From: Bacilli bacterium
Lineage (GTDB): Bacteria; Bacillota_I; Bacilli_A; RFN20; DUOF01
Direction: 5' to 3'
DNA length: 24,000 nt
Assembly (NCBI GenBank): GCA_045119835.1
Contig: JBGVED010000022.1
Location: 27,646 to 51,645 of the forward strand
Part shown: positions 5,416 to 23,994 of the stretch, piece after piece
Numbering within the stretch: the first letter of the stretch is position 1
Layout: each line of letters opens with the position of its first letter
Notes under the pieces: generated by a model
Told to the model about the DNA's origin: nothing
The model's database searches: none
What the model saw: only the letters and a program-made list of their open reading frames with translations
Program-made: the position numbers and the translations under genes

Positions 5416-8400
5416 TTATTTAAAAATTATTTTGATTATATTTTCATTAACTCTTTCTATTACTCTGTAAGTATCAAAACCTCTTTCACAAGCTGTTGCT
5501 TTTCCATTATCATCGCATTTACAGAAGCCATTAACCTCACAAGTTCCATCGTCATATACCGAAAGAACACCTAGCATACCAATAGCGTCCCATTCAGGTC
5601 TATCTGCTCTAGAAATATATTCTTTATTTGGATCATAATCTGGATTTACAGCAAATGATTCATATTCTACTTCTTTCTCTACAGTTACATCTAAAAGTTT
5701 TTTTCTTTCATCATAAGATAATTTTTCAAATTCTTCTTCTGATATTTCAATATCTTTAAATGATTTTGTTTCTTTTACTTCTACGATGTCTTTATAAACT
5801 TTTTTTATAGGTCTATTGAATTCGTCAGTTAAATATTGCCCATGCCAATTTAAATCATGATTACCTAAAACAGCAGGATGACCTGATACTATACCTAATA
5901 GGTATTCTCCTGATTTAGCTTTTCTTATTTTATTTCCATCTAAAGTAACAAAATAACCAACTCTATCTTCAGCATCAGGATTACCATCAATCCATTCAAA
6001 ATACTCAGCATAGTCCGCTCCTGATGTTGAATAGGCAGCTTTACCCATTACTTGACCTGCATATGATATAACACACGCATTAGATCTAGTTTCTGCATTA
6101 CCATAATTTCCTGTACCATTACCTACAGTAAATGCAGCACCATTTGTCCCAGAACTACTTCCTGACCAGTTAGTATCATTGTAATGTCCTATGACAAACA
6201 TATTTTCTCCATATGAACTAGTAGTTGTACCTACACCGAATACAGATGAATAAGCTCCATTTGCTTCTGCATAATATCCTGAAGCCAATGCGTAACTTGC
6301 TTTAGCTTTGGAATAATATCCTCCCAATGCAGTAGAATACAATCCAGTAGTTATTGCTTCGTAACCCATAGCGTAACTTCCGTTACTTTGTGCTTCTGCA
6401 CAATATCCTAAAGCTACTGTATTATTAGCTATTGCTTTCGGAGAATATCCAAAAGCGACTCCACAATAACCTAAATCTCTATTTGGTTCACCATTACTGT
6501 TTTCTCCTCCTGTATCTGCGTAGTAACCTCCACATATACTATAGTATCCAAATGCTTTCGAATAACGTCCTAATGCTGTACCTTTATCCCATCCTTCACA
6601 ACCGTATCCAAGAGAATTTCCTCCATTATGACATTCGGCATAACTACCAATAGCATTACCATAAGATCCAGTACAATTAGCATAATTACCAATTATGATA
6701 TTATTATTGATACCACTTCCTGTTAAATTATTACCTGTACCTATAACTACGAGATTTGATGCATTATCGTTTGTAGTAGTACCAACTTTATTATTTTCAC
6801 CTATTGCAAAAACATATCCAGAATAAATTTCATTAAGATCACCTATTACTAATGAGCCATAACCATGTACTTTATTATTTCTACCTATTGCAACGCCTTC
6901 ATTTCCATCTACTACGTTTTGATCTCCTATTGCAGCAGATATAGCTCCTGAGACTGTATTGTTATATCCTAAATTAACTTTACTACCTTTATTACTATAA
7001 TTATCTCCACTATATTTTAATTCACTAGCTGTTGCAGTTAAATATGTACTAGGTACATAATTGCTATGTGTATGGTTTCCTGCAGCTGCATTACCTGCAC
7101 CTGTTCCTATTGTTAAATGTGTACCATGTGATGCAGGAGCAGCACCTAATTCTTCAAGATCTGGTTTGTGTAAATTTGTATAGAATCGATTCCAAGCTCC
7201 CCAGCTAGTACCTTCACCTTTTCTAAAATACATTCTACCGTCATCTAAAGTAGCGAATTGAGTTGCTTTACCGCCAGACCAAGATGTCGTATCGCCCCAT
7301 TGTTGATAAGTTATGACACCTGCGAAATTTTTACCTGAATTTGGAAGTCCTACAGTTGAAGTAGATTTAAATTCTGGATAAATACCTCTAGTGGTATATG
7401 TATTTGGTGCGCTATTCGCATTTCTTGTATCCATTGAAGTTATATAATCATGTATATGAGAACTTATAGTGCCTGTCAACTTATTTTCTATTTCAGTTTT
7501 AGTTATATCACTATTTTTTTGAGCATTTGATGGAGCATGAGCTGATTGACTATGATTGTAAGCAGTATTACCATAGTCTCCTCTATATGCAGTAGACGAT
7601 GTAGTACCTAAACTTAAATGTGTACCATGTGTACTAGCAGCCGCTCCTATAGAACTTGGTGTAATATTAATTGTTTTAGCAGCAGAACCATTAAATGTAA
7701 ATAAATTTGTCCCTTCAGTAGAACCACTATTAAGTTTAATAGTCAAATTAGTATTGACTTTGTTGGCACTAGTAGCTGCTCCTCCAGCAGAACTTGAGCC
7801 AGCATAGTTATGTGTATGATTACCAGCTGCCGCATTACTTGCACCAGTTCCTATAGTTAAATGCGTTCCATGTGACTTAGCAGCATACTTGCTAGATAAA
7901 GCTGTTCCGTTTTCAGTAAACGAAGTTGCAGTAACATTTCCTGTTACAGTTAATTTAGCATCAGTTAGTGAAGATGCATCTAATGTCATTGCATTAAATA
8001 ATGTTCCACCACTTGGAGTAAATCTCCATCTCCACATATCGTTTTGTGTTGCATCATCTGCTAAGTTAAAGTCAAAATAAGTATTAGTGCCATCTACAGT
8101 TGTACTTATAGAACCAGAATCAGAACCTTCGGTCGCAAATGCTAAACCTGTTATTCCAGTTAAAGATGTATGATTATGAGATGCAGGAGCATAAGTGCCA
8201 CTATGATTATGGCTAGTTATGGTACCAGTAAGTTTAGCTTCTATTTCAGCTTTTGTTATGTCACTATTTTTTTGTGCGTTGCTAGGAGCATGTGCTGCTT
8301 GTGAATGATTATATGCCGTATTACCGTAATCTCCTCTATACGCAGTACTAGATGTAGTACCTAAAGTTAAATGCGTTCCATGTGACTTAGCAGCATATTT

Positions 8401-8937
8401 ATCAGCTAAAGCAGTTCCCCCTTCTGTAAACGAAGTAGCTGATATAGTTCCGCTTTCATTAAAAGTCATCTTATTAGTAAAAGTAGTTGAACCTGTTCTT
8501 ATATCAAAATATAAGCTACCTCCACGATCTTGTACTCTCCAGTCAGTATAGCTATCACTATCTGATCCTCTATAGAATATTAATGAAGGACTGTCATTAG
8601 AGCCTGATGCGTATAATTTTAAATCTCCTGTAATATTTCCTCCACTTAACGGTAAATAGCTATGTGTATGAGTAGTTATATTTCCAGTTAATTTAGCTTC
8701 TATTTCAGCTTTTGTTATATCACTGTTCTTTTGTGCGTTACTAGGAGCATGAGCAGATTGACTATGTTGATAAGCTGTATTTCCGTAATCACCTCTAAAT
8801 GCATTTCCAGAACCTGTACCTAAAGTTAAATGGGTACCATGTGAACTATTTGCTTTTTTTGCCAATTCCGTATCTATATATTGTTTCGTTCTTGTCAAGG
8901 ACGTATTTAATGCATCTTTTAAACTTAATTTTGCCAT
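5416..8937 (-). CDS. Mosaic tail fibre/tail spike (1173 aa) with a C-terminal Peptidase_G2-type intramolecular-chaperone domain
   Basis: AAAGGAG lies 7 nt upstream of the ATG. There are three 61-aa modules SHGTHLTLGT..AYRGDYGNTAYNHSQSAHAPSNAQKNSDITKAEIEAKLTG..HxH and six HxH motifs. aa ~655-905 carry Gly/Tyr/Asn repeats like YadA-head/hep_Hag repeats (GYxAxAxGxxS). aa 974-982 read ADYAEYFEW, followed by DGNP..DRVGYFVTLDG (DNA 5419-6020), as in phi29-type pre-neck appendage C-termini. Confidence 0.9.
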   Translation of the reverse strand: MAKLSLKDALNTSLTRTKQYIDTELAKKANSSHGTHLTLGTGSGNAFRGDYGNTAYQHSQSAHAPSNAQKNSDITKAEIEAKLTGNITTHTHSYLPLSGGNITGDLKLYASGSNDSPSLIFYRGSDSDSYTDWRVQDRGGSLYFDIRTGSTTFTNKMTFNESGTISATSFTEGGTALADKYAAKSHGTHLTLGTTSSTAYRGDYGNTAYNHSQAAHAPSNAQKNSDITKAEIEAKLTGTITSHNHSGTYAPASHNHTSLTGITGLAFATEGSDSGSISTTVDGTNTYFDFNLADDATQNDMWRWRFTPSGGTLFNAMTLDASSLTDAKLTVTGNVTATSFTENGTALSSKYAAKSHGTHLTIGTGASNAAAGNHTHNYAGSSSAGGAATSANKVNTNLTIKLNSGSTEGTNLFTFNGSAAKTINITPSSIGAAASTHGTHLSLGTTSSTAYRGDYGNTAYNHSQSAHAPSNAQKNSDITKTEIENKLTGTISSHIHDYITSMDTRNANSAPNTYTTRGIYPEFKSTSTVGLPNSGKNFAGVITYQQWGDTTSWSGGKATQFATLDDGRMYFRKGEGTSWGAWNRFYTNLHKPDLEELGAAPASHGTHLTIGTGAGNAAAGNHTHSNYVPSTYLTATASELKYSGDNYSNKGSKVNLGYNNTVSGAISAAIGDQNVVDGNEGVAIGRNNKVHGYGSLVIGDLNEIYSGYVFAIGENNKVGTTTNDNASNLVVIGTGNNLTGSGINNNIIIGNYANCTGSYGNAIGSYAECHNGGNSLGYGCEGWDKGTALGRYSKAFGYYSICGGYYADTGGENSNGEPNRDLGYCGVAFGYSPKAIANNTVALGYCAEAQSNGSYAMGYEAITTGLYSTALGGYYSKAKASYALASGYYAEANGAYSSVFGVGTTTSSYGENMFVIGHYNDTNWSGSSSGTNGAAFTVGNGTGNYGNAETRSNACVISYAGQVMGKAAYSTSGADYAEYFEWIDGNPDAEDRVGYFVTLDGNKIRKAKSGEYLLGIVSGHPAVLGNHDLNWHGQYLTDEFNRPIKKVYKDIVEVKETKSFKDIEISEEEFEKLSYDERKKLLDVTVEKEVEYESFAVNPDYDPNKEYISRADRPEWDAIGMLGVLSVYDDGTCEVNGFCKCDDNGKATACERGFDTYRVIERVNENIIKIIFK
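7450..8844 (-). repeat. Three dispersed ~183-bp near-identical coding repeats inside the fibre gene
   Basis: Long copies at 8662-8844 (aa 32-92), 8203-8385 (aa 185-245) and 7450-7632 (aa 436-496). Shorter related copies (KSHGTHLTIGTGA.NAAAGNHTH) at 7804-7878 and 7057-7131. Identical DNA runs occur, for example AAATGCGTTCCATGTGACTTAGCAGCATA at 7859-7887 and 8368-8396. Confidence 0.85.
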
Positions 8938-10122: not shown

Positions 10123-10627
10123 TCCGTCAGTCCTGAGTAAGACTATAAACTACTCCCCTATATATATAGGGTATGTCTAATGCAGCCACCTATATGGTGC
10201 AGGTCACAAGCCCTGGTAAATGCAGAGTGGACATAGGAGTTAATGCTTCTCCTCTATCAAAAAGCTAACCTAACCAATTTAAAATGAGTCGGGCTGCCAA
10301 GGCCCCTTAAACTTGGCCAGTTGTCAGTACTGATAGTATGAACTGACTGGGTTTTGTTCTCAATTCTTTCCCATCAAAAAAGGAATTGTCTGCCTAATCA
10401 GGACCGACCAAGTCCCTAAACTGGCGGGTGTATAGCATTAGGCTATCCCCTATAACAAATGATAAAGGTGCATGAGATAGCTCTTCGGTTAGGGCTGGCA
10501 CTGTTCTTGGTTAGGTACCAGTACTACTACGATAGGTTGTGCCAGTGCCATACCGTCAATACATAAACCACATTGACATAGGGTTTAATGTGCTTATGTA
10601 TAAAATAAACTATATAGGGGTGTTTAT
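10123..10627 (+). ncRNA. Candidate large (~500 nt) structured non-coding RNA / GC-rich ORF-free island
   Basis: No ORF of 60 aa or more on either strand, and clearly more GC-rich than the flanking genes. Local helices: 10156-10171 (CCCTAT/ATAGGG), 10172-10177/10230-10235, 10294-10320 (CTGCCAAG/CTTGGCCAG with one bulge), 10324-10328/10342-10346 (TCAGT/ACTGA), 10392-10398/10437-10443 (GCCTAAT/ATTAGGC) enclosing GGAC/GTCC, 10496-10503/10543-10550 (TGGCACTG/CAGTGCCA), 10555-10560/10572-10577 (GTCAAT/ATTGAC). Strand inferred from neighbouring genes. Confidence 0.4.
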
Positions 10628-11416
10628 ATGTATAACAAATTAAGATCTGTAATATTATTAGCTTATAAAAAAGAGATATGTAGAAGAGAAATACTAGATT
10701 GTGATGCTAGAGAAGACATAGAAAATGATATAAATGATATCATAGAATCTAGTTTACGCAATTATGTAGATCAAAGTGAACATTTCTCTAGACCTAAACG
10801 ATTAGTATATGACGATACTTGTGCTCCTATTAATGCTTATGGTTATTATATGCATATGATAGATCTAATAACATTAGATGAAAATTTAAGATGTTTTTAT
10901 TCAATGGCTTCTCTTAATTTTCTTGAAACATTAAAAGTAAGCGTTAATACATTCTTACATGAACATCGTCATTGTCATCAATACAAAACTAACATGGATA
11001 TATTAAACCATCCACTATCTAATAAAAATAATCCTGAGTATGTATATGCAAATAGTCCTCTAGAATTAGATGCTAATAAATATGCAGATATGTATGAATT
11101 AGAAGCAGTAGAATGGATTATAGATAGTATAGAATCATGGTTTGATGTTAAATACACTAAAGATATAGTAGAAGCTGATATTAGAGATGATGTAAGAGCA
11201 GCTATAGAAAACTACTATAATAATTTACCTGAAGAAGAAATAGAAAATAGTTTAGCTGAAATGGAAGAAGAATTAGAAGAATACGAAATGACACAAGCTA
11301 TGTTATCTATGCTAGATGATGATGAAGAAGATGAAATAGAAGAAATAACAATAGATCCAGATGAAGACATAAAAGAATGGTTTAGACAATATGAAGAACA
11401 ATTTGGTGAATGGTAG
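10628..11416 (+). CDS. ImmA/IrrE-like (M78-type) HExxH zinc metallopeptidase with a hyper-acidic C-terminal tail (262 aa)
   Basis: AGGGGTG SD lies 5 nt upstream. HEHRH at aa 111-115, followed 31 aa later by E-L-D-A-N-K-Y-A, matching the family's HExxH...ExxANxFA signature. aa ~195-262 are Glu/Asp-rich and end in EEQFGEW. Confidence 0.6.
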   Translation: MYNKLRSVILLAYKKEICRREILDCDAREDIENDINDIIESSLRNYVDQSEHFSRPKRLVYDDTCAPINAYGYYMHMIDLITLDENLRCFYSMASLNFLETLKVSVNTFLHEHRHCHQYKTNMDILNHPLSNKNNPEYVYANSPLELDANKYADMYELEAVEWIIDSIESWFDVKYTKDIVEADIRDDVRAAIENYYNNLPEEEIENSLAEMEEELEEYEMTQAMLSMLDDDEEDEIEEITIDPDEDIKEWFRQYEEQFGEW

Positions 11417-11422
11417 TATATA

Positions 11423-11449
11423 GGGCTCATAATAATATGGGCCCTTTTT
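11423..11449 (+). terminator. Intrinsic terminator
   Basis: GGGCTCATA-ATAA-TATGGGCCC (9 bp with one G.U) followed by TTTTT, 7 nt after the stop. Confidence 0.75.
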
Positions 11450-11460
11450 ATGTTTTAAAT

Positions 11461-11519
11461 AATCTGTCCAGGTGTAGATGCCTGCTGATGAGTCTTTGCA
11501 AATTAAGACGAAACAGATT
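11461..11519 (+). promoter_or_regulatory. Structured 5' leader (three-way-junction-like) of the 11542 gene
   Basis: Closing stem AATCTGT/ACAGATT (11461-11467/11513-11519) encloses CAGG/CCTG (11469-11472/11481-11484) and GTCTT/AAGAC (11492-11496/11505-11509). Confidence 0.4.
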
Positions 11520-11541
11520 AAATATATTGGGAGGTTTTACT

Positions 11542-12039
11542 ATGAGTAAAATATATGTAAAAGATTATTATCAAATGAATAAAGGATTATTTGAAAACTT
11601 TGAAGATAAAAAATTCTTTCATGGGTTTGGCGCATTCTTTGCGTCAAAAACACCATTAGAAAGAAAATTCACAAGATTAATAGAAGATACAAATGAAGAA
11701 TTCGAAATATGTACATCAACTAAAGCTTGCGGTATGAGTGGAGTCATAGTGCAAGGTAGAGTATTATTAGCTGCAAATTCTGATTTATGTTCAGGAATAA
11801 ATGCTAATGGTAGATACTTTGATTCTAAACAATTAGATGAATTAGTATTCGACTTTAATGATTTAGAATTATGGGAGGATGATTGCGAAGAAAATAATGA
11901 AATCATCCTAGATCATGTACAAGTAGTAGGTATATGGTATTGTGAAGATGCTAACAACAATGTTAAAGCTTTATGTAAACGTTTAGCTGAATTATATAAT
12001 CTACCATTAATAAATGCTGGTCTAAGCATATTTAATTAA
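11542..12039 (+). CDS. Paralog-family protein 2 (165 aa), FHG...CTSTK...NEII motif set
   Basis: GGGAGG lies 7 nt upstream of the ATG at 11542. The track's upstream extension from 11410 overlaps the terminator and leader. Alignable with the 9412 protein: FFHGF / ICTSTKACGMSGVIVQGRVLLAANSDLCSGINANGRYFD / NEIILDH...LAELYNL. Confidence 0.8.
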   Translation: MSKIYVKDYYQMNKGLFENFEDKKFFHGFGAFFASKTPLERKFTRLIEDTNEEFEICTSTKACGMSGVIVQGRVLLAANSDLCSGINANGRYFDSKQLDELVFDFNDLELWEDDCEENNEIILDHVQVVGIWYCEDANNNVKALCKRLAELYNLPLINAGLSIFN

Positions 12040-12077: not shown

Positions 12078-12167
12078 ATATTTCTATAGTTTTTTTATTT
12101 TTTTTACTATTTGTTCAAACGAGAGCGCACCTAAGTACTCTCTATTTTTACATATAACTAAAGATAA
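12078..12167 (+). promoter_or_regulatory. Cassette intergenic repeat, copy 1 (promoter-like block)
   Basis: ATTTCTATAGTTTTTTTATTTTTTTTAC...CGAGAGCGCACCT...TTTACATATAACTAAAGATAAA. Shared almost verbatim with 12799-12887 and partly with 13580-13650. CGAGAGCGC core at 12120-12128. Confidence 0.5.
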
Positions 12168-12208: not shown

Positions 12209-12769
12209 ATGAGTAAAAAATTAAATAAAATGGTATCTAGTGGTTTAATAATAACAACTGTATTATCAAGTACAACAACTAAAGTTGAAGCAGATGCAGC
12301 AGCAGTATTAGAAATAGCAAATGAAACAGCTATGGTATGTCCATATGTGGCACCACTAGTAGTAACAGGCTCATTAGTAGTGACTGGTATCACTACTATA
12401 ATTGGTATTAAAAATAACAATACAGAAGAATATATCTATCGTAGTTATAGTCATCTTCCAGATCACTGGAAGAAGAATACTTGGGTTGAAAAACTTAACC
12501 CAAACGGTAGGGTGATTCAGCGTAGATATTATGGATCTGATGGTCTTCCAGTTGTTGATTATGATTTAACTCACCATGGTTTCCCAGAGGATCATCCTAA
12601 AAACTTCGGTGGAGCTCATAAACATTTATATAATAATCAAGCTAGAAGAATAAAAGATAGAAGACAAAAGGGTATTGAAATGACTCAAGAAGAATACGAC
12701 AAGTATATAAAAAACTTTAATGAATACGCAGAAAAAATGAAGGTTAGATATATAGAGGATGCTAAATAG
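12209..12769 (+). CDS. Membrane/secreted protein with a His-rich C-terminal motif (186 aa)
   Basis: AGGGGG SD. N-terminal hydrophobic segments (GLIITTVLSS; VAPLVVTGSLVVTGITTIIGI). C-terminal IQRRYYGSDGLPVVDYDLTHHGFPEDHPKNFGGAHKHLY aligns with the 18053..18439 protein. Confidence 0.8.
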   Translation: MSKKLNKMVSSGLIITTVLSSTTTKVEADAAAVLEIANETAMVCPYVAPLVVTGSLVVTGITTIIGIKNNNTEEYIYRSYSHLPDHWKKNTWVEKLNPNGRVIQRRYYGSDGLPVVDYDLTHHGFPEDHPKNFGGAHKHLYNNQARRIKDRRQKGIEMTQEEYDKYIKNFNEYAEKMKVRYIEDAK

Positions 12770-12798: not shown

Positions 12799-12887
12799 AT
12801 ATTTCTATAGTTTTTTTATTTTTTTTACATGTTGTACACTCGAGAGCGCACCTTATTGTGCTCTCATTTACATATAACTAATGATAA
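12799..12887 (+). promoter_or_regulatory. Cassette intergenic repeat, copy 2
   Basis: Same block as copy 1. CGAGAGCGC at 12841-12849, inside hairpin GAGAGC/GCTCTC. TTTACATATAACTAATGATAAA follows. Confidence 0.5.
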
Positions 12888-12927: not shown

Positions 12928-13557
12928 ATGAGTAAAAAAGATATAGAAAGATTAAAAAATATGAAGAAACAAAATAATATGAAGAATCAAATGACTAGAC
13001 AAGAAAAAATACAAAGTATAGAAAATTTAGAAAAGAAATTAGCTGACATGTTTAATCAACGTAGTGAAGAAGAATTAAGAAGTATAATAGAAAGACACAA
13101 AAGAAATCAATCAGTTATATATTTTAACGATCATGACAAAGCATTTCAATTTTTAAGAAATAATGATTATAGTGTAGACATATTAGGTACAGTAAGTGAA
13201 GTTAGCAAAATAAGAAATGTAAATGGTGTAAGAACTATGTGTCTAGAAAATATATATATGGTAGCTGTTGAAAATGATAACGTTTGTATATGCGTTGACC
13301 ATATATGGATGAATGAAGAATTATCATGGACAATACTAAAGAATATATTGAAATATCCTGGTAAGGCTGGATATGAAATATTTATCAATAGATTAAAGCC
13401 AATAAAATATACAGAAGAATATTACAACAATGGAGTTGAAAAACACAGATATCAATTAACACAATTAACTAAAAAGAAAAGAATTGCTTGGGTTCAAAAA
13501 GTACAAAGAGCCAATGGAATAACAATGTCAGTAGAAAAAATAGCAGAAATATTATAG
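12928..13557 (+). CDS. Hypothetical protein, basic coiled N-terminus (209 aa)
   Basis: AAGGGGA SD lies 7 nt upstream. No recognised motif. Confidence 0.8.
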   Translation: MSKKDIERLKNMKKQNNMKNQMTRQEKIQSIENLEKKLADMFNQRSEEELRSIIERHKRNQSVIYFNDHDKAFQFLRNNDYSVDILGTVSEVSKIRNVNGVRTMCLENIYMVAVENDNVCICVDHIWMNEELSWTILKNILKYPGKAGYEIFINRLKPIKYTEEYYNNGVEKHRYQLTQLTKKKRIAWVQKVQRANGITMSVEKIAEIL

Positions 13558-13584: not shown

Positions 13585-13650
13585 TATTTTTATAGTTTTT
13601 TTATTTTTTTTACATGGTGCGCACTCGAGAGCGCATCTAATTACATATTC
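13580..13650 (+). promoter_or_regulatory. Cassette intergenic repeat, copy 3 (diverged 3' half)
   Basis: TTTTTATAGTTTTTTTATTTTTTTTACA, then the near-palindrome GCGCACTCGAGAGCGC (CGAGAGCGC at 13626-13634), then TTACATATTCA. Confidence 0.45.
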
Positions 13651-13755
13651 ATGGACCAATCCATGTGAGGTCCTTAAATAACATCATGGAACCCGATCCA
13701 GTTTTTAATGTGGGGGTTGTCTGTCATCCCATCCCAAAAACAGTCAAATACCAAT

Positions 13756-13806
13756 ATGGGGTTAGGGTTGAACCTCGGTCAAAAACCCATGTGTAGTCTT
13801 ACACAT
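13756..13806 (+). promoter_or_regulatory. Conserved two-hairpin leader motif, copy 1 (upstream of the polymerase gene)
   Basis: ATGGGGTTA-GGGTT-GAACCTCGGTCAAA-AACCC-ATGTG-TAGTCTTA-CACAT. Paralogous to 15942-15992, with compensatory changes in both stems. AAGGAGGG SD and the ATG follow within 25 nt. Confidence 0.6.
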
Positions 13807-13828
13807 TAGCTCAAGGAGGGCAAATATC

Positions 13829-15808
13829 ATGTCAATGAATAACAGTAAATTAAGAGGAATATCAAAAGGATTTGGAAGCAACAAATTACTAAGACAAAAG
13901 ATAAACGAAGCTATATATGCAACAAGTGTAGTAGTTAACAAAATAGAATTAAGCTACAACAAAGAAACAAAAGAATATGAAATAACTAAAGACGTTAGAG
14001 GATTAGCAGTATGGAATCCTGTATTTGAAAGATTTGGCTTAAACAGAGACTATCAAAAGATGAATGTAACAGTAGAAGCAGAAGATGACAATGGAAACAC
14101 AACTAAACGTAAAGTTAATATAGACGGTGAATCAGTAGTTATGTGTGACAGCATAATGTTCATCAAATGTGATAACCTTAAACAAATAGCTAAAATGGAC
14201 GAAGAAGGATTCGTATATAATGGTGAATTATATAGAGTACTAGGTGCTTCTCCTTCTCAACAAAAACACGCAGTTAAAGCTTATTTTAAAGTGACTAATG
14301 AATTCCCAACTGAAAAACATGCATTCTTAGCTATGGACGAAGTAAGTGGTTTTGTCTTTACTAAGGGTATATTCAGAAACAAAGTATCTGGACAAAAAGT
14401 TATTGCTGCCAATACAAGATTTGGTAACTATTTAACAGGTATGCAATGCTTAGCTAAAATAGACTTATCAAAAGATTATATAGTTATAGTTGACGGAAGC
14501 ATACCAGGAGCATATGATTTTGACGAACAAACTAGAGAAGAAATGGAAGCTAAAGGACTTGAATTTGACTGCAACATCAATGATGGAGCTTTACACTTTG
14601 GTGTTCCAACAATACAAGAAATAGGACAAAATGTAGGTGTTAGTTTAACAGAAGAAGATGCATTAAGAGTTGCTTTACAATCAAGAATAACTTATATAAC
14701 AGCTAAAGTTATGGGTGACTGTATGCCAGAAAATCAATTATTACAAATGGCAGCACTTCCTAATGCAGTTAAATATGGAAACACAAACGGAAGATTAATG
14801 TTAGTATGCGATACAGATGGAGCAAAAGCTTTAGCAGTTCCTGAATTAGAAAACGGTACAGCTGTATTAGATGTATACGTTATGGCTCAAGCTGCGGTTT
14901 CTGAACCAAAAAGTTCAGGACAACATTTAATCAAATATATGGCAGTTGCTCCAGAAAGAACATTAGAATTCATAAACACAGTGACTACTGAAAATTTAGA
15001 AGCATATGTTATGAATCAAGTAGCAGAAGGTAAAGGTTCTACAGTTGTTGACGATATAAAAAGAGCTCTTGGAGAAGATGCTTTCACAACTAAGATATTT
15101 GTAGAAGGTATATACAGAGATGCTTTCAAGTTTGTACAATCAGCTATAGCTAAAACTAAATTATCTATAGAAGCAGTATATAGCCATATGACATTTGATA
15201 GTACTTTTGTATTAACTAAAGGATTAATCAGAGGTATACTAGACATAACTAATGAAGGTTTTGTACAAGCATTCTGTCCAGACGTATTAAGAAAATATGC
15301 TAAAGAAATAGCTGCTATAGAAAATGATCCAACATTAACAGAAAGAGAAAAAGAAGTAAAATTATTTAACTTACTATCTGGTACAGTTATAAAATACCCT
15401 TCTGCAGGAACAAAAGAATTTGAAATCATAGTTTATCAAACTATGAAACAAATAGAAACATCTATAAAATCTAGAGTTGCAGAACTAGGATTAGACAATA
15501 AGGATGCAGAAGCTATGGTAGATATGTTATTAGCATATTTTGAAAATAGACCATATGGAACAACTACTTTTGCACCATTAAACGCATTAAAAAACAAGTT
15601 GGCGGGAGCCGACTGTGATTTTGATGCTACTATGACAGATATGAGTGAATTAAAACACATCCTTATAGAGAAAAGATTAGAAGAACAAGAAAAACAACCT
15701 GGATTTATGGGGGATTGTACTTTTATCAGCTATAAAGATGTACCAAGAACAGAAGATAAAAATGTTGTTGAAGATACTTTAGGAAACACTGATGATATAG
15801 AATGGTAG
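13829..15808 (+). CDS. Compact two-barrel RNA polymerase, RdRP/QDE-1/YonO-like (659 aa)
   Basis: The CDS itself is near-certain (strong SD, terminator). The function call rests on an ordered motif series: GELYRVLGASPSQQKHAVKAYF (aa 132-153), ANTRFGN (194-200), NDGALHFG (251-258), LQSRITYITAKV (283-294), IKYPSAGTKEFEII (521-534), LAGADCDFD (591-599; DxDxD, DNA 15611-15625). C-terminal tail EDTLGNTDDIEW. Confidence 0.6.
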   Translation: MSMNNSKLRGISKGFGSNKLLRQKINEAIYATSVVVNKIELSYNKETKEYEITKDVRGLAVWNPVFERFGLNRDYQKMNVTVEAEDDNGNTTKRKVNIDGESVVMCDSIMFIKCDNLKQIAKMDEEGFVYNGELYRVLGASPSQQKHAVKAYFKVTNEFPTEKHAFLAMDEVSGFVFTKGIFRNKVSGQKVIAANTRFGNYLTGMQCLAKIDLSKDYIVIVDGSIPGAYDFDEQTREEMEAKGLEFDCNINDGALHFGVPTIQEIGQNVGVSLTEEDALRVALQSRITYITAKVMGDCMPENQLLQMAALPNAVKYGNTNGRLMLVCDTDGAKALAVPELENGTAVLDVYVMAQAAVSEPKSSGQHLIKYMAVAPERTLEFINTVTTENLEAYVMNQVAEGKGSTVVDDIKRALGEDAFTTKIFVEGIYRDAFKFVQSAIAKTKLSIEAVYSHMTFDSTFVLTKGLIRGILDITNEGFVQAFCPDVLRKYAKEIAAIENDPTLTEREKEVKLFNLLSGTVIKYPSAGTKEFEIIVYQTMKQIETSIKSRVAELGLDNKDAEAMVDMLLAYFENRPYGTTTFAPLNALKNKLAGADCDFDATMTDMSELKHILIEKRLEEQEKQPGFMGDCTFISYKDVPRTEDKNVVEDTLGNTDDIEW

Positions 15809-15870: not shown

Positions 15871-15941
15871 ATGGGAGCTAAATAATCGGCAGCCTCCTCG
15901 TTGGCGCTCCTGGATATCCAACCAATGCCGTAAATACTATT

Positions 15942-15992
15942 ATGGGGTTAGGGCTGAACCTCGGTCAAAAGCCCGTGCATAGTCTTATGCAC
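15942..15992 (+). promoter_or_regulatory. Conserved two-hairpin leader motif, copy 2
   Basis: ATGGGGTTA-GGGCT-GAACCTCGGTCAAA-AGCCC-GTGCA-TAGTCTTA-TGCAC, followed by the AGGAGGG SD and the ATG at 16018. Confidence 0.6.
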
Positions 15993-16017
15993 TTTGCCTA
16001 TAGGAGGGCGTATATAT

Positions 16018-19993: not shown

Positions 19994-20053
19994 AATAAAT
20001 TATTAATTTAAAAAAATATATGGGTGGCGACCGGCGCTAGAAGGAGATTTACC

Positions 20054-21133
20054 ATGAAAAAATATGAATTAGAAATGCAAATACAAAAACAAATGGAAGA
20101 ATTACAAAATAAAGAAACTGAATTACAAAATCAAAAAACTGAAGATAGAAAAACAGTAGAACAATTATGTAGCGAATGGAATTGGACATTATCAGATAAA
20201 GAAGCAACAATAGTTAAAGAAGTAGTAGTAGACAATACAGATACAGCAACAATAGAAATGCTTAGAGAAACAATAAGACAAATGAATCAAACAATAAATG
20301 ATATGAATAAAGAACAAGATGAACTATACAAATTATATTTAGAAGAACAAAGAGAAAAAGAAATATGGGCTGCTGCACATGCCGAACTAAAAGAAGTATA
20401 TGAACAACAAATGATAGATATGACATCTGAGTTCGAATTACAATTAGATGAATTAAATAAAAAATACTCTGCATTAGACAGTGAAAATGAACAATTAGAT
20501 AGAGAGATCCATGTATTAACAGGGCAAGTTGCAGGGTATGAAGCACAATTAACTAACAAGGATATAAAAATAGAATCATTAGAAAAACAAATAGCAGATG
20601 CTAAAGAAGATAAAGTAAGAGCTGAAATAATAAAAACAAAAAGTGGAGCAACAATAGAAGTAGTTGACGATCCTGATTATAATGACGTACCAGAAGAAAA
20701 ACCTGTAACTAATAATAAACCAATGAATAATCCAATAAGCTTAACTTATACTTCTTTACACGTAACTCATGATGCAATAAAAGCAATAGCACACGATAAA
20801 GCTAATGGTGTAACATTCCATTTCGTATGGAAAGCTGGACAAGAAAAACTTCCATGTTTTAGTGCAACAGGAGCTAGAGGAACTTGGAGCAGAATGAATG
20901 GTGCAGGTATGTATCGTTATGGTAAACAAATAGTTGAAGATTTCAAACAACTAGCAGAAGAAAAAATAATAAGCAAAACTAAAGATGGCAAAGTAAAAAC
21001 AACTAAAGCTAATAAACCAAACAAACCTGAAGATAAACCTGTAGTTAAAGTAACAAAAGAAGTTGCAGTAGAAACTAATGATGATCCACTTGGAAACACT
21101 GATGATATGGAGTTTGACTGCTATGACTGCTAG
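20054..21133 (+). CDS. Coiled-coil protein with the shared acidic-aromatic C-terminal peptide (359 aa)
   Basis: ORF-track ORF trimmed to the ATG at 20054 (AAGGAG 7 nt upstream). Long coiled coil, a basic Lys/Pro linker, and C-terminus NDDPLGNTDDMEFDCYDC. Confidence 0.8.
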   Translation: MKKYELEMQIQKQMEELQNKETELQNQKTEDRKTVEQLCSEWNWTLSDKEATIVKEVVVDNTDTATIEMLRETIRQMNQTINDMNKEQDELYKLYLEEQREKEIWAAAHAELKEVYEQQMIDMTSEFELQLDELNKKYSALDSENEQLDREIHVLTGQVAGYEAQLTNKDIKIESLEKQIADAKEDKVRAEIIKTKSGATIEVVDDPDYNDVPEEKPVTNNKPMNNPISLTYTSLHVTHDAIKAIAHDKANGVTFHFVWKAGQEKLPCFSATGARGTWSRMNGAGMYRYGKQIVEDFKQLAEEKIISKTKDGKVKTTKANKPNKPEDKPVVKVTKEVAVETNDDPLGNTDDMEFDCYDC

Positions 21134-21770
21134 GGAGGCAGGGGCACATACTTTCACACGAGAGCGCCAAAATTTCCCCCCTTCGGGGGAGATGGCTCCA
21201 CCCTTCGGGCTCGCCCCTCACGGGTCAGGCTCCGCTCCGCTACGCGGAACCTTCGGTTCCACGTGCTCCGCTCCGCAAAAGACAAAACCCAGCTCCGCTA
21301 CGCTGCGCGAAACCTTCGGTTTCACTCAGCTTCGCTCCGCAAAAGACAAAAGCATCGCTCACTACGTTCGCTCACACAAAGGCGTTTGTAATGAGTGTGT
21401 GCTCGCATGCGCTCGCACAAAAGACAAAAACCACAAAAGACAAAGCCTTGCACAAAGGCGTGCTTTATGGTGTTACGCCCACATGTACTGCCCCCTTCGG
21501 GGCCAGTGCCATGGGGCTAACGCTGCACAGGGCACTCAAACAACGAGTGCCTTGCACAAAGGCGTGTTTTATGATAGAGCATGCTCACTGCGTTCGCACA
21601 AAAGCGTTCGTAGTGCGTCTAGCGCGCTTGCGCTTGCACAAAGGCGTGTTCTATGGAAATACGTCTTGCTTATGCAGTCAGTATGTATGGCATTAACGAG
21701 TGCCATAACTGGTCGTGTATACGACATTGACGAGCGCCACACAAAGGCGTGATTTATGATTTTAAAAAAA
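21134..21770 (+). other. GC-rich repeat- and hairpin-dense non-coding island (structured RNA array, promoter/terminator array or replication origin)
   Basis: CACAAAGGCGTG at 21451, 21555, 21637 and 21740 (plus CACAAAGGCGTT at 21375), each followed by NTT(T/C)TATG(G/A). AAAAGACAAA at 21277, 21341, 21419 and 21435. CCTTCGG-centred hairpins at 21177-21189, 21246-21260, 21309-21323 and 21487-21507. Further hairpins at 21686-21707 and 21712-21725. CGAGAGCGC core at 21159-21167. Ends in an A/T tract (21755-21775). Confidence 0.5.
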
Positions 21771-21781
21771 ATTTATTAGGT

Positions 21782-21801
21782 TGTAGGTCGTCGTGCCTAC
21801 A
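21782..21801 (+). promoter_or_regulatory. TCGTCGTG-loop hairpin, copy 1 (leader of the 21820 gene)
   Basis: TGTAGG-TCGTCGTG-CCTACA, preceded by TTAGGT and followed by GGAAATAGGGGT (SD) and the ATG. Confidence 0.55.
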
Positions 21802-21819
21802 GGAAATAGGGGTATAACC

Positions 21820-22497
21820 ATGAAAAATATAGTATTAGTAGCAATGAACAATGTAAGTGTAGCAGTAGTAGCTAATAAAGGACAAAATCAATATAAAGCA
21901 GTTCAAGCTAACAACAGCAAAATAGCATTATTAACTAACTTAAAAACAGTATTATCAGGAATACCAACTAATGATGATTTATCAGCAGAAACAAGACAAA
22001 TTATAATAGGAAGCAAATCTCCAATAATCGGTTTAGTAACAGGTACTTGGAGAGAATATATAAAAACAGGTAAAAACGCTAAAGGCGTAGAAATAGCAGA
22101 AGAAGAATTAGCATTATGGAAACAAGTAGCAGAATTATATGCTAACCGTTGCTTTAATGTTAAATTTACTAGCGACCAATATATAGGCAAAAACGATAAA
22201 GCTACAAAAGACTTAATCAACGTATCTTGGGAATTAGTTAAACAAGAAGTTAGAAAAGCTAATGATATGGCTCAACCAACTCAACCTAAAGTTGCTCAAT
22301 CAGCTCCAGCAGTTAATCCAGTTGTAGCTAAATTACAAGAGCTTATGACTAAAGCATTAGATGAAGGTGACTTCGAAGCTTATGATAAATTAGAAGAAAG
22401 ATTAAACAAATTACAACCAGCTAAAGAAGTTGCAGAAGAACCAGTTAATAATGATCCACTAGAAGGTGCAGAAGAAATGGAATTTGACGCTGAATAA
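21820..22497 (+). CDS. 225-aa protein with an acidic-aromatic C-terminal tail (speculative SSB-like or hub-binding role)
   Basis: ORF-track ORF trimmed to the ATG at 21820 (AGGGG 7 nt upstream). C-terminus NNDPLEGAEEMEFDAE. No fold recognisable by eye. Confidence 0.75.
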   Translation: MKNIVLVAMNNVSVAVVANKGQNQYKAVQANNSKIALLTNLKTVLSGIPTNDDLSAETRQIIIGSKSPIIGLVTGTWREYIKTGKNAKGVEIAEEELALWKQVAELYANRCFNVKFTSDQYIGKNDKATKDLINVSWELVKQEVRKANDMAQPTQPKVAQSAPAVNPVVAKLQELMTKALDEGDFEAYDKLEERLNKLQPAKEVAEEPVNNDPLEGAEEMEFDAE

Positions 22498-22549: not shown

Positions 22550-22564
22550 AATAATTAATTAGGT

Positions 22565-22584
22565 GATAAGTCGTCGTGCTTATC
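22565..22584 (+). promoter_or_regulatory. TCGTCGTG-loop hairpin, copy 2 (leader of the 22604 gene)
   Basis: GATAAG-TCGTCGTG-CTTATC, preceded by TTAGGT and followed by GGAATCAAGGGTG (SD) and the ATG. Confidence 0.55.
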
Positions 22585-22603
22585 GGAATCAAGGGTGATT
22601 AAT

Positions 22604-23440: not shown

Positions 23441-23520
23441 AACATAAGCACAAAAGCGTTCTTCTTGAATCATTAGCTATGCACAAAAACAACAAATTAA
23501 AATTTATAGGAGGTATCCTT

Positions 23521-23745: not shown

Positions 23746-23749
23746 TAAT

Positions 23750-23915
23750 ATCAGCGCGAGGCCGAAGGCCGAGCGCGTCTTCCCTTTTGAAAGGGATTGA
23801 GGGTTAGGCGCCGAGCGTATAGCGAGGCGCAATAACACATATGATAAACTATAAGCTAGACTTATAGGTTGAACGAGGCGAGCGTAAGCGAGCCGAGTGA
23901 AAAGGCACTCTCACA
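23750..23915 (+). other. GC-rich intergenic segment with GAGCG/GCGAG mirror-type repeats and hairpins
   Basis: GCGAGGCCGAAGGCCGAGCG (inner GGCC-GAA-GGCC hairpin), CCCTT-TTGA-AAGGG hairpin, GCGCC-GAGCGTATAGCGA-GGCGC hairpin, GGCGAGCGTAAGCGAGCC, GAGTG-AAAAGG-CACTC hairpin. Confidence 0.35.
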
Positions 23916-23923
23916 TTTTGAGC

Positions 23924-23994
23924 AAAAGTTTAGTATAACTAGTCCTATACTAGAAGTTTTAGAACACAACTGTGATAAAAGTTTAGTATAACTA
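23924..23994. repeat. Direct repeat AAAAGTTTAGTATAACTA x2 (53-bp spacing)
   Basis: Exact 18-mers at 23924-23941 and 23977-23994. The array may continue past the window end. Confidence 0.6.

Follow-up and report, generated by a model that had tools for sequence, protein, structure and literature searches.

A GC-rich, hairpin-dense non-coding island in an AT-rich gut phage, with a candidate promoter for the phage's own RNA polymerase

Why does an AT-rich gut phage keep a GC-rich gap of ~650 bases in which no gene is consistently called? The question is raised by the 24,000-nucleotide (nt) stretch of contig JBGVED010000022.1 that was analysed here (the window), in which the genes for a 369-amino-acid (aa) protein and for a 225-aa protein are separated by the following element.

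Positions 21134 to 21790, + strand: GC-rich non-coding island, delimited by G+C content, conserved position, non-coding tests and fold z-score.

The G+C content of the island is ~52% (0.52) against a genome background of ~30% (0.30). In 300-nt windows it amounts to 0.51-0.53 over 21001-21600 and to ~0.23-0.39 in most windows elsewhere, which confirms the anomaly pointed out by a sequence-only reading of this DNA. The answer that we prefer, and for which we see about even chances, is that a promoter for the phage polymerase leads into a ~600-nt RNA made of an array of hairpins, which would end at a terminator-like hairpin and be followed by variant promoter boxes that restart transcription for the downstream gene. 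The island would then be a non-coding transcription unit or an extended leader.

Relatives were found through the downstream 225-aa protein, which has 55 homologues (24-98% identity) in gut-type metagenome assemblies; 33 loci were fetched, and single loci are designated below by L numbers. Gene order is conserved across them, and a GC-rich gap of 480-700 nt without a consistently called gene occupies the same position in every relative with enough flank. This position is kept at 35-98% identity of the flanking protein. L012 and L014 are rearranged, being devoid of the island while keeping a short hairpin in the 5'-untranslated region (UTR) of the downstream gene. In L014 (1160-1325), homologues of the 270-aa gene and of the 225-aa gene are direct neighbours in this order, with no island and nothing between them but a terminator, a single CAAAAGCGTTATCTATG module and the UTR hairpin. 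This arrangement suggests a paralogous copy, a rearrangement or a chimeric assembly.

The phage is uncharacterised, no related phage has been described, and no known RNA family matches the island. Among GenBank phages there was no DNA match, and no protein match for two window proteins. IMG/VR gave no match by protein, protein profile or two DNA motifs, and representative genomes gave none by protein profile, the core of the repeat modules described below being absent from all 185,579 of them. Exact-protein look-ups for the two flanking window proteins found no match, and a literature search for comparable phage regions returned mostly nothing relevant. ARAGORN predicted 0 tRNA or tmRNA genes in the whole window. 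An Rfam scan of the island gave nothing at the gathering threshold, the best permissive hit reaching 16.6 bits (E = 2.6), and no match even at an E = 10 threshold; the islands of 10 relatives matched no family either.

The island is overlapped by an open frame.

Positions 21078 to 21752, + strand: fortuitous 224-codon open reading frame (ORF), from the ORF listing.

Judged by its pattern of substitutions and indels, the island is nevertheless non-coding. In three comparisons, substitutions in the island are flat over the codon positions (20/16/20, 62/61/60 and 63/52/53), whereas the adjacent gene shows a third-position excess in the same comparisons (9/7/16, 19/18/50 and 30/25/54) and in-frame indels only. 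Indels of the island (1, 2, 63 and 64 nt) break the reading frame; the window differs by a 64-nt indel from L025, at 98% flanking-protein identity, and by 1-2-nt indels from L026. Two or three frames are open simultaneously, and the longest one differs among relatives when placed relative to the conserved 5' anchor. The view that the 224-codon frame is fortuitous and that conservation lies at the nucleic-acid level, already put forward from the sequence, is therefore upheld. Pfam gave no match. Gene callers predict ORFs of 140-182 aa in L006 and L025-L028, and several relatives carry AGGAGG followed by ATG at the 5' edge. The ATG lies in three different frames relative to the box situated there and is missing in the window and in L025; this Shine-Dalgarno-like sequence with its ATG was rejected as a start codon, since it belongs to a conserved box element, ACATATGTTTAC, found in three frames.

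If the island is not translated, what is conserved in it? Folded as RNA, it gives z = -8.7 for the + strand and z = -4.8 for the - strand. Among 12 islands folded on both strands, the + strand was the stronger in 8, with a mean z of -6.1 (+) versus -4.7 (-), a modest preference that is supportive of a + strand RNA, not decisive. The structured elements found in the window are the following.

Positions 21173 to 21225, + strand: 5'-domain hairpins CCCCCC-UUC-GGGGG, CCC-UUC-GGG and GCCCC-UCAC-GGGU (alignment A2, RNAalifold).
Positions 21229 to 21366, + strand: 63-nt tandem repeat, 2.2 copies (Tandem Repeats Finder).
Positions 21240 to 21266, + strand: hairpin H4 copy a, CTACGCGGAACC-TTC-GGTTCCACGTGC, from a 14-member hairpin family.
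Positions 21303 to 21329, + strand: hairpin H4 copy b of the same 14-member family, within the extra tandem unit.
Positions 21393 to 21429, + strand: repeat module with conserved loop TCGCATGCGCTCGCACAAAA and a stem that is degenerate in the window (covariance model R1, 26 bits, E = 9e-6).
Positions 21478 to 21516, + strand: long hairpin capped by CCCC-UUCG-GGGG (-22.9 kcal/mol, z = -3.1), conserved in relatives.
Positions 21528 to 21554, + strand: hairpin GGCACUC-AAACAAC-GAGUGCC, whose 3' arm is a Y-type box at 21543-21551 (inverted repeat, fold).
Positions 21581 to 21618, + strand: repeat module CACUGCG-UU-CGC-ACAAAA-GCG-UU-CGUAGUG (R1 E = 0.0026; -16.8 kcal/mol, z = -4.3).

The first ~135 nt constitute a conserved 5' domain (alignment A2, RNAalifold consensus) that is collinear over deep divergence. 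Its stems are nearly invariant and consequently show little covariation. The H4 family is more informative: over its 14 instances, 9 of the 12 pairs change on both sides, 81.5% of the cells are paired versus 20-41% in slid registers, and the covariation score of 0.45 versus 0.17 was reached in 0 of 500 shuffles. The 64-nt unit carrying H4 copy b is absent in L025, L026, L013 and L028, and the copy number of the tandem repeat varies even among genomes with a 98% identical flanking protein. In the hairpin at 21528-21554, the R/Y position covaries (window, A/U; L028, G/C). The island contains five CCTTCGG sites, one more than the four hairpins that had been counted from the sequence, and for most of them a CC-UUC-GG triloop or pentaloop is a better register than a true C(UUCG)G tetraloop.

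With regard to the repeat modules, they consist of a variable stem around a conserved loop of ~20 nt (consensus UCGCnnGCGCUCGCACAAAA), within a core that reads GCTCRC-N3-GCGYTCGC-ACAAARGC; the loops are conserved, not the stems alone. The flanks pair and covary in many modules, for instance GATATGTTGC/GCAACATGTT in L006, GATATGATGC/GCGTCATATT in L027 and TGATGTGTTGC/GCAGCATGTCA in L016, and the number and order of the modules differ in every relative. The covariance model R1 was built from seven clear module instances. When searched against 140 kb on both strands, it returned 21 hits at E < 0.01, all on the + strand and all inside islands, and hits outside the seed keep the stem (9/9 pairs in L001 and in L016, 8/8 in L023 and in L026); the module at 21393-21429 keeps 4/6. 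Gapless stem matching over all modules was noisy, with at least 7 pairs in 35% of cases versus 19% at random positions. A tally of G.U versus A.C pairs in the module stems is biased by stem selection, and the two-strand folding was used instead. Base pairs are thus maintained by compensatory changes in H4 and in the module stems, as expected of a structured RNA. These substitutions indicate purifying selection on structure, and the hairpins that had been noticed in the sequence are a real, selected feature.

The second question is how such an RNA would be made. A family-wide motif, ACGAG(AG)YGCC, is strand-specific and intergenic: distinct instances of this box number 69 on the + strand versus 6 on the - strand, and every one of the 27 boxes counted over six loci is intergenic, 26 of them on the + strand, while intergenic sequence makes up 17-27% of these loci. 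Its AG form, WCGAGAGCGCM, occurs 4 times in the window versus 0.02 expected, always on the + strand and always between genes.

Positions 21146 to 21168, + strand: 23-nt candidate promoter at the 5' edge of the island, consisting of an AG-type box and the half preceding it (ACATACTTTCAC-ACGAGAGCGCC); the box copy is that at 21158, and the element includes CGAGAGCGC.
Positions 12119 to 12129, + strand: intergenic cassette with an AG-type box; distance to the downstream gene (at 12209), 90 nt.
Positions 12840 to 12850, + strand: intergenic cassette with an AG-type box; distance to the downstream gene (at 12928), 88 nt.
Positions 13625 to 13635, + strand: intergenic cassette with an AG-type box; distance to the downstream RNA polymerase gene, 204 nt.
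Positions 21696 to 21738, + strand: pair of Y-type boxes at a spacing of 34 nt, ACGAGTGCCATAAC (21696) and ACGAGCGCCACA (21730), with a GT(A/G)TAT element in front of each.

The boxes at 12119, 12840 and 13625 occupy consecutive intergenic gaps that share a cassette of ~75 nt, in the order terminator hairpin, T-tract, ACATnTGTnnnAC, box and TTTACATATAACT. The position before the polymerase gene is also occupied by a box in L001 and L004, and an AG-type box is kept at the 5' edge of the islands of most relatives. Near the 3' end of their islands, relatives carry 2-5 boxes, often spaced by exactly 17, 34 or 51 nt, L022 having four boxes at 17-nt spacing. The last of these boxes lies 81-104 nt upstream of the start codon, before an A/T-rich tract; the corresponding distance in the cassettes is 88-90 nt. 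As for host-type signals, sigma-70 promoters were found 9 times versus 9.0 expected, with none in the body of the island. A Bacteroidetes-type -7/-33 promoter was considered by eye and rejected.

As expected of a phage promoter, the box is conserved and asymmetric, lies between genes, points in their direction and recurs upstream of several of them. It resembles the promoters of T7, T3 and SP6 and the stoperators of mycobacteriophages, which are also asymmetric, strand-specific, GC-containing elements of ~12-24 nt lying between genes in the direction of transcription, and there is a partial resemblance in sequence layout to the T7 promoter (ACGACTCACTATAG versus ACGAGTGCCATAAC). In contrast to the T7, T3 and SP6 systems, the polymerase encoded here belongs to an unrelated fold class and tandem copies at 17 nt are atypical; unlike for the stoperators, no repressor is known here.

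Phage two-barrel single-subunit RNA polymerases, such as YonO and the virion polymerase of crAss-like phages, are a recently recognised class of enzymes. The phage encodes its own RNA polymerase, which belongs to this kind according to homology and modelling.

Positions 13829 to 15808, + strand: single-subunit two-barrel RNA polymerase (QDE-1/RDR/YonO-like), 659 aa (homology, motif, predicted structure).

The 659-aa protein itself has no Pfam or PHROG match; a homologue passes the Pfam threshold for RdRP (PF05183). The motif G593-x-D595-x-D597-F-D599-A (GxDxDFDA) is invariant in 23 sequences. The AF2 model (pLDDT 78.7, pTM 0.77) was compared with the PDB by Foldseek, and the top 7 matches were all plant RDR2, over the full length (E = 3e-9 to 3e-6, probability 1.0). 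Given the PF05183 homologue, the invariant DxDxD, the model and the RDR2 matches, the protein is identified as a two-barrel single-subunit RNA polymerase of the QDE-1/RDR/YonO kind. The AG-type box is most likely the promoter or recognition site of that polymerase. The suggestion, made from the sequence, that the island holds promoters for a phage polymerase thus stands as regards the enzyme, which is encoded; the promoter-like motif is ACGAG(AG)YGCC and not the CACAAAGGCGTG repeat to which the role had been given.

The closest parallel is SPbeta, which also encodes a single-chain two-barrel RNA polymerase. There, an unannotated non-coding RNA comes before the late operon, and the start site mapped for YonO is upstream of that RNA (PMC5467207), a layout similar to the one proposed here. 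The 2017 paper on YonO left the promoter recognised by the enzyme undefined (PMC5467207). The two systems differ in that the polymerase comprises ~660 aa here versus ~100 kDa for YonO and its structure best matches plant RDR2, and in that the SPbeta RNA is not described as an array of hairpin modules. A separate feature shared with another gene is a leader of ~55 nt, ATGGGGTTAGGGYTGAACCTCGGTCAAAARCCC-RTGYRTAGTCTTAYRCA, found upstream of both the polymerase gene and a gene for a 553-aa protein (13735-13815 and 15935-15993, + strand). Its terminal hairpin covaries (UGUGUA/UACACA versus GUGCAUA/UAUGCAC).

The third question is where transcription would end. A repeat, CACAAAGGCGT(G/T)NNTYTATG, is present in five copies in the island (+ strand, by motif count), beginning at 21375, 21451, 21555, 21637 and 21740.

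Positions 21375 to 21393, + strand: copy 1 of CACAAAGGCGT...TATG, within a stable nested hairpin (z = -3.0).
Positions 21451 to 21469, + strand: copy 2, terminator-like; local fold not significant (z = -0.8).
Positions 21555 to 21573, + strand: copy 3 (motif count, terminator-like scan).
Positions 21637 to 21655, + strand: copy 4; local fold not significant (z = -0.1).
Positions 21734 to 21778, + strand: copy 5 within the terminal hairpin GCGCC-ACACAAA-GGCGU, followed by a U/A-rich tract; terminator-like.

The spacings of 76, 104, 82 and 103 nt, reported from the sequence beforehand, are correct, as are the four occurrences of CAAAAGACAAA; 0.05 matches to the repeat are expected by chance. A weak sixth match with 3 mismatches, at 23449, falls outside the island. 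It had been proposed that an invariant AAGGCG arm forms a hairpin followed by a T tract in each copy. Three of the five copies were called terminator-like; the others were not, and the local folds of the copies at 21451 and 21637 do not exceed shuffles in stability. The best reading of the CACAAAGGCGTG and NTTTATG halves is as arms that pair with each other in a small hairpin (CACAAAG/YUUUAUG, with a C.A mismatch); relatives have a 3' arm, UUUGUG, that is fully complementary to CACAAA. The stem of the terminal hairpin covaries among relatives (CGCC/GGCG, UGCC/GGCA and GAGUGC/GCGCUC). The CACAAAGGCGTG...TTTATG repeat is lineage-specific, being absent in distant relatives that keep the island. 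An array of short RNAs, each with its own terminator, as once suggested, is weakly supported: no more than three of the five copies are terminator-like, the folds are heterogeneous, and distant relatives that keep the island lack the repeat. For its part, the idea of five CACAAAGGCGTG iterons at an origin is not supported in that form, since these repeats are lineage-specific.

Taken together, these elements would function as follows. The 23-nt element ACATACTTTCAC-ACGAGAGCGCC, whose box family also fronts three other genes including that of the polymerase, would start transcription at the 5' edge. Transcription of the + strand would yield an RNA of ~600 nt composed of GC-rich hairpins, with the conserved 5' domain first and then a variable number of modules, in each of which a covarying stem would present the conserved loop UCGCnnGCGCUCGC-ACAAAA. 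The unit would end with a hairpin and U-tract, an A/T-rich tract and 2-5 variant boxes (ACGAGYGCCAUA, often 17 nt apart), which lie ~80-130 nt before the next gene and plausibly restart or regulate its transcription. The RNA would most likely serve as a multivalent platform, a sponge or scaffold on which the repeated loops are offered to a protein. The role of the box as promoter, the course of transcription and the binding of protein by the RNA are inferred. A trans-acting RNA presenting multiple loops is favoured because the loops are conserved on covarying stems while their copy number varies.

Several observations weigh against this proposal. A box spacing of 17 nt is odd for promoters and is a better fit to an array for a DNA-binding protein, and the structural context of the boxes varies (5' arm, 3' arm or unpaired). 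The strand signal is modest; H4 contains one conserved internal C.A mismatch, which is a G.U pair on the - strand, and with more A.C than G.U cells this family alone leans to the - strand. The seed of R1 was picked for pairing, so that the 93.7% of stem cells paired in it carry an ascertainment bias, and the window itself offers two clear R1 hits and one weak one, several module stems being degenerate. The + strand of the island is C- and A-rich, which is unusual for structured RNA, and the five repeat copies fold heterogeneously (local z from -0.1 to -3.6). Finally, no partner protein for the RNA was identified.

Known RNAs offer partial parallels to the proposed platform. RNAs of the CsrB and RsmZ type, which sequester proteins, likewise have repeated stem-loops with variable stems, a conserved loop motif and a copy number that varies among relatives. 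They differ in that the conserved feature here is a loop of ~20 nt (UCGCnnGCGCUCGCACAAAA) instead of GGA, the GG of CACAAAGG not being conserved (AAGC, GAGC, GGGC), in the phage setting, and in that no CsrA-like partner is known here; a CsrA-type GGA motif was rejected by eye. GOLLD and ROOL are also GC-enriched, structured non-coding regions of several hundred nt in phages of AT-rich hosts. In contrast to their fixed multi-stem folds, the island is modular, repetitive and subject to fast turnover, and matches neither in Rfam at E = 10. A structured non-coding phage locus with phage-specific promoters is a known kind of element; the present architecture and its link to a two-barrel polymerase are not known.

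A bolder version of the proposal would make the island the founding example of a class of modular phage RNAs, with ACATnTGTnnAC-(A/T)CGAG(AG)YGCC as the promoter of the two-barrel polymerase and the loops as a multivalent decoy or scaffold acting in trans on a host or phage factor. We regard this as tentative and on balance unlikely. If true, the consensus ACATnTGTnnAC-(A/T)CGAG(AG)YGCC would be among the first promoters defined for the two-barrel class. The lineage provides a compact and directly testable candidate, with a clear consensus and four copies within 10 kb, and the island would be a natural template that starts with a stable hairpin. It is also a new candidate structured RNA with good covariation support, in which the modular repeats are unusual among phage RNAs. 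The phages that carry it, in which hardly any gene is annotated, seem to be common in the gut metagenomes of humans and animals, and the targets of the repeated loops could reveal a new RNA-based strategy of host takeover or anti-defence.

Among the other explanations, the one that survives best, although we consider it rather unlikely, is that the island acts purely in cis. It would then mark a boundary of transcription between two blocks of genes, at which the hairpins pause, terminate or insulate transcription arriving from upstream and the boxes restart it, or it would be a long structured 5' leader that governs how stable the mRNA for the 225-aa, RNase H-like protein is or how it is translated. 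Three of the five repeat copies and the terminal hairpin do resemble intrinsic terminators, other leaders in the phage are structured and conserved, such as the element shared by the genes at 13829 and 15994, and a second GC-rich gap is introduced by the same two signals. In L014, the downstream gene keeps its UTR hairpin without the island, which is likewise counted for a cis role and implies that this gene does not strictly need the island. Still, 600 nt with conserved loops and a 5' domain far exceed what a terminator or insulator needs; the loops are conserved besides the stems, U tracts are mostly absent after the hairpins, and no terminator belonging to the upstream gene separates it from the box.

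An origin of replication is a less probable explanation, and indeed a quite unlikely one. Transcription from the boxes would prime or activate replication, and boxes at 17 nt would act as iterons beside the A/T-rich tract at 21755-21778. In every relative, 2-5 direct boxes at multiples of 17 nt are followed by an A/T-rich tract, one box is part of an inverted repeat (21528-21554), the neighbouring protein has an RNase H-like fold, and the flanking proteins bear acidic tails with aromatic ends like those of single-stranded-DNA-binding (SSB) proteins. A promoter followed by GC clusters and an A/T tract is moreover the layout of transcription-primed origins, which counts for this explanation: the T7 primary origin, ColE1 RNA II and yeast mitochondrial ori share with the island a polymerase promoter (a putative one here), GC-rich structured sequence and an A/T tract, and a neighbour with an RNase H fold adds to the likeness. 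Unlike in those systems, the catalytic DEDD residues of RNase H are not conserved here, and the transcript is C-rich, which disfavours R-loops. The acidic tail is also present on the RNA polymerase and hence not specific to the replisome. A spacing of 17 bp is not a multiple of the helical repeat, in contrast to typical 22-bp iterons, and the boxes are not confined to a putative origin, occurring singly in ordinary intergenic cassettes. Cumulative GC skew turns at ~9 kb, where gene strands diverge, and not at the island. No initiator protein was identified, the downstream protein being RNase H-like, not Rep-like.

Modules that are selfish or neutral GC-rich mini-repeats, expanding and contracting by recombination in a tolerated gap, appear very unlikely. 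Turnover is rapid, as illustrated by the 64-nt unit that is present or absent at 98% flanking-protein identity and by the varying number and order of the modules, the modular hairpin architecture fits, and related motifs recur in the second gap. Pneumococcal BOX, REP, BIME and the GC clusters of yeast mitochondria are comparable in being modular, hairpin-forming, GC-rich, intergenic units of variable copy number in AT-rich genomes. The island modules, by contrast, keep a single orientation and occur at no more than one or two fixed loci; they are not dispersed repeats, and none of the host genomes searched shares them. The collinear conservation of the 5' domain over deep divergence, the absence of the module core from representative genomes and IMG/VR alike, and the compensatory substitutions, which indicate purifying selection on structure, also speak against this explanation.

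Lastly, that the 224-codon ORF or the ORFs called in L006 and L025-L028 encode a real protein is scarcely credible: the open frame, the gene calls and the AGGAGG with ATG are set against the lack of codon periodicity, frame-shifting indels, two or three frames open at once, an ATG that belongs to ACATATGTTTAC, changes frame and is missing in the window and L025, and the empty Pfam search. Mimicry of CRISPR repeats and ToxI-like antitoxin arrays were also considered and, without a formal test, set aside, as repeat lengths and sequences do not fit.

The gene that follows the island and its UTR hairpin are located as follows.

Positions 21781 to 21802, + strand: 5'-UTR hairpin of the downstream gene, UUGUAGG-UCGUCGUG-CCUACAG (z = -2.4).
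Positions 21820 to 22497, + strand: gene downstream of the island, encoding a 225-aa protein of RNase H-like fold that ends in an acidic tail (AF2, structure match).

The AF2 model of the 225-aa protein has a pLDDT of 77, and its top structure match is RNase HI (E = 3e-7). According to this model, only the fold matches RNase HI: strand beta-1 reads KNIVLVAMNN, DEDD is not conserved, and none of the catalytic positions is taken by an invariant acidic residue. The protein is not a winged-helix Rep. The UTR hairpin kept in L012 and L014 has a covarying stem (GTAGG/CCTAC, GATAGG/CCTATC, GGTACG/CGTACC). Written as GGT(G/T)(A/T)TAGGTCGTCGTGCCTA(C/T)C, it recurs before the next gene as GGTGATAAGTCGTCGTGCTTATCGG (22560-22590, + strand); at least two genes in a row are preceded by a covarying stem that carries the conserved UCGUCGUG loop. 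Similar acidic C-termini with aromatic ends, LGNTDDIEW, DPLGNTDDMEFDCYDC and DPLEGAEEMEFDAE, are found in the products of genes 13829-15808, 20024-21133 and 21820-22497, respectively the polymerase, the upstream 369-aa protein and the 225-aa protein, which are otherwise unrelated. The shared tail could be a docking or virion-packaging signal.

The second conserved GC-rich non-coding element is situated at 23746-23925 of the window (+ strand), at 9760-9960 in L001, at 5320-5480 in L028 and at 5540-5650 in L031. In relatives, this gap is introduced by the same pair of signals, a CACAAAAGC module and then a ACGAGCGC box. Its hairpins show tandem G.A motifs and GNRA-like loops (GCGCGAGC-GAA-GCGAGCGC and GAGCG-UAA-GCGAG), and its GCGAGC motifs are complementary to the GCUCGC loops of the island. 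This long-range complementarity was not significant by duplex energy, nor was it significant in the window. Local matching was equalled by 2, 3 and 6 of 200 shuffles in three genomes, which is marginal, and by 26 and 56 of 200 in two others.

Elsewhere in the window, a type III hammerhead ribozyme at Rfam gathering score was found at 11461-11519 (+ strand, 49.2 bits), with another at 1137-1192 of L019 (+ strand, 53 bits). The hammerhead of the window starts a segment of ~630 nt that comprises an ORF (11410-12039), a terminator and an AG-type box. Between the homologous flanking genes of L001 and L004 there is no such segment, a difference that points to an insertion. The only structural gene of the window with a clear annotation lies at 5416-8937 (- strand); its product is a 1173-aa protein resembling tail spikes or pre-neck appendages, with YadA-head repeats and an intramolecular chaperone domain of the Peptidase_G2 type. 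A gene-free gap of 505 nt at 10123-10627 (+ strand), with an elevated G+C of 0.42, contains several inverted repeats and neither type of box.

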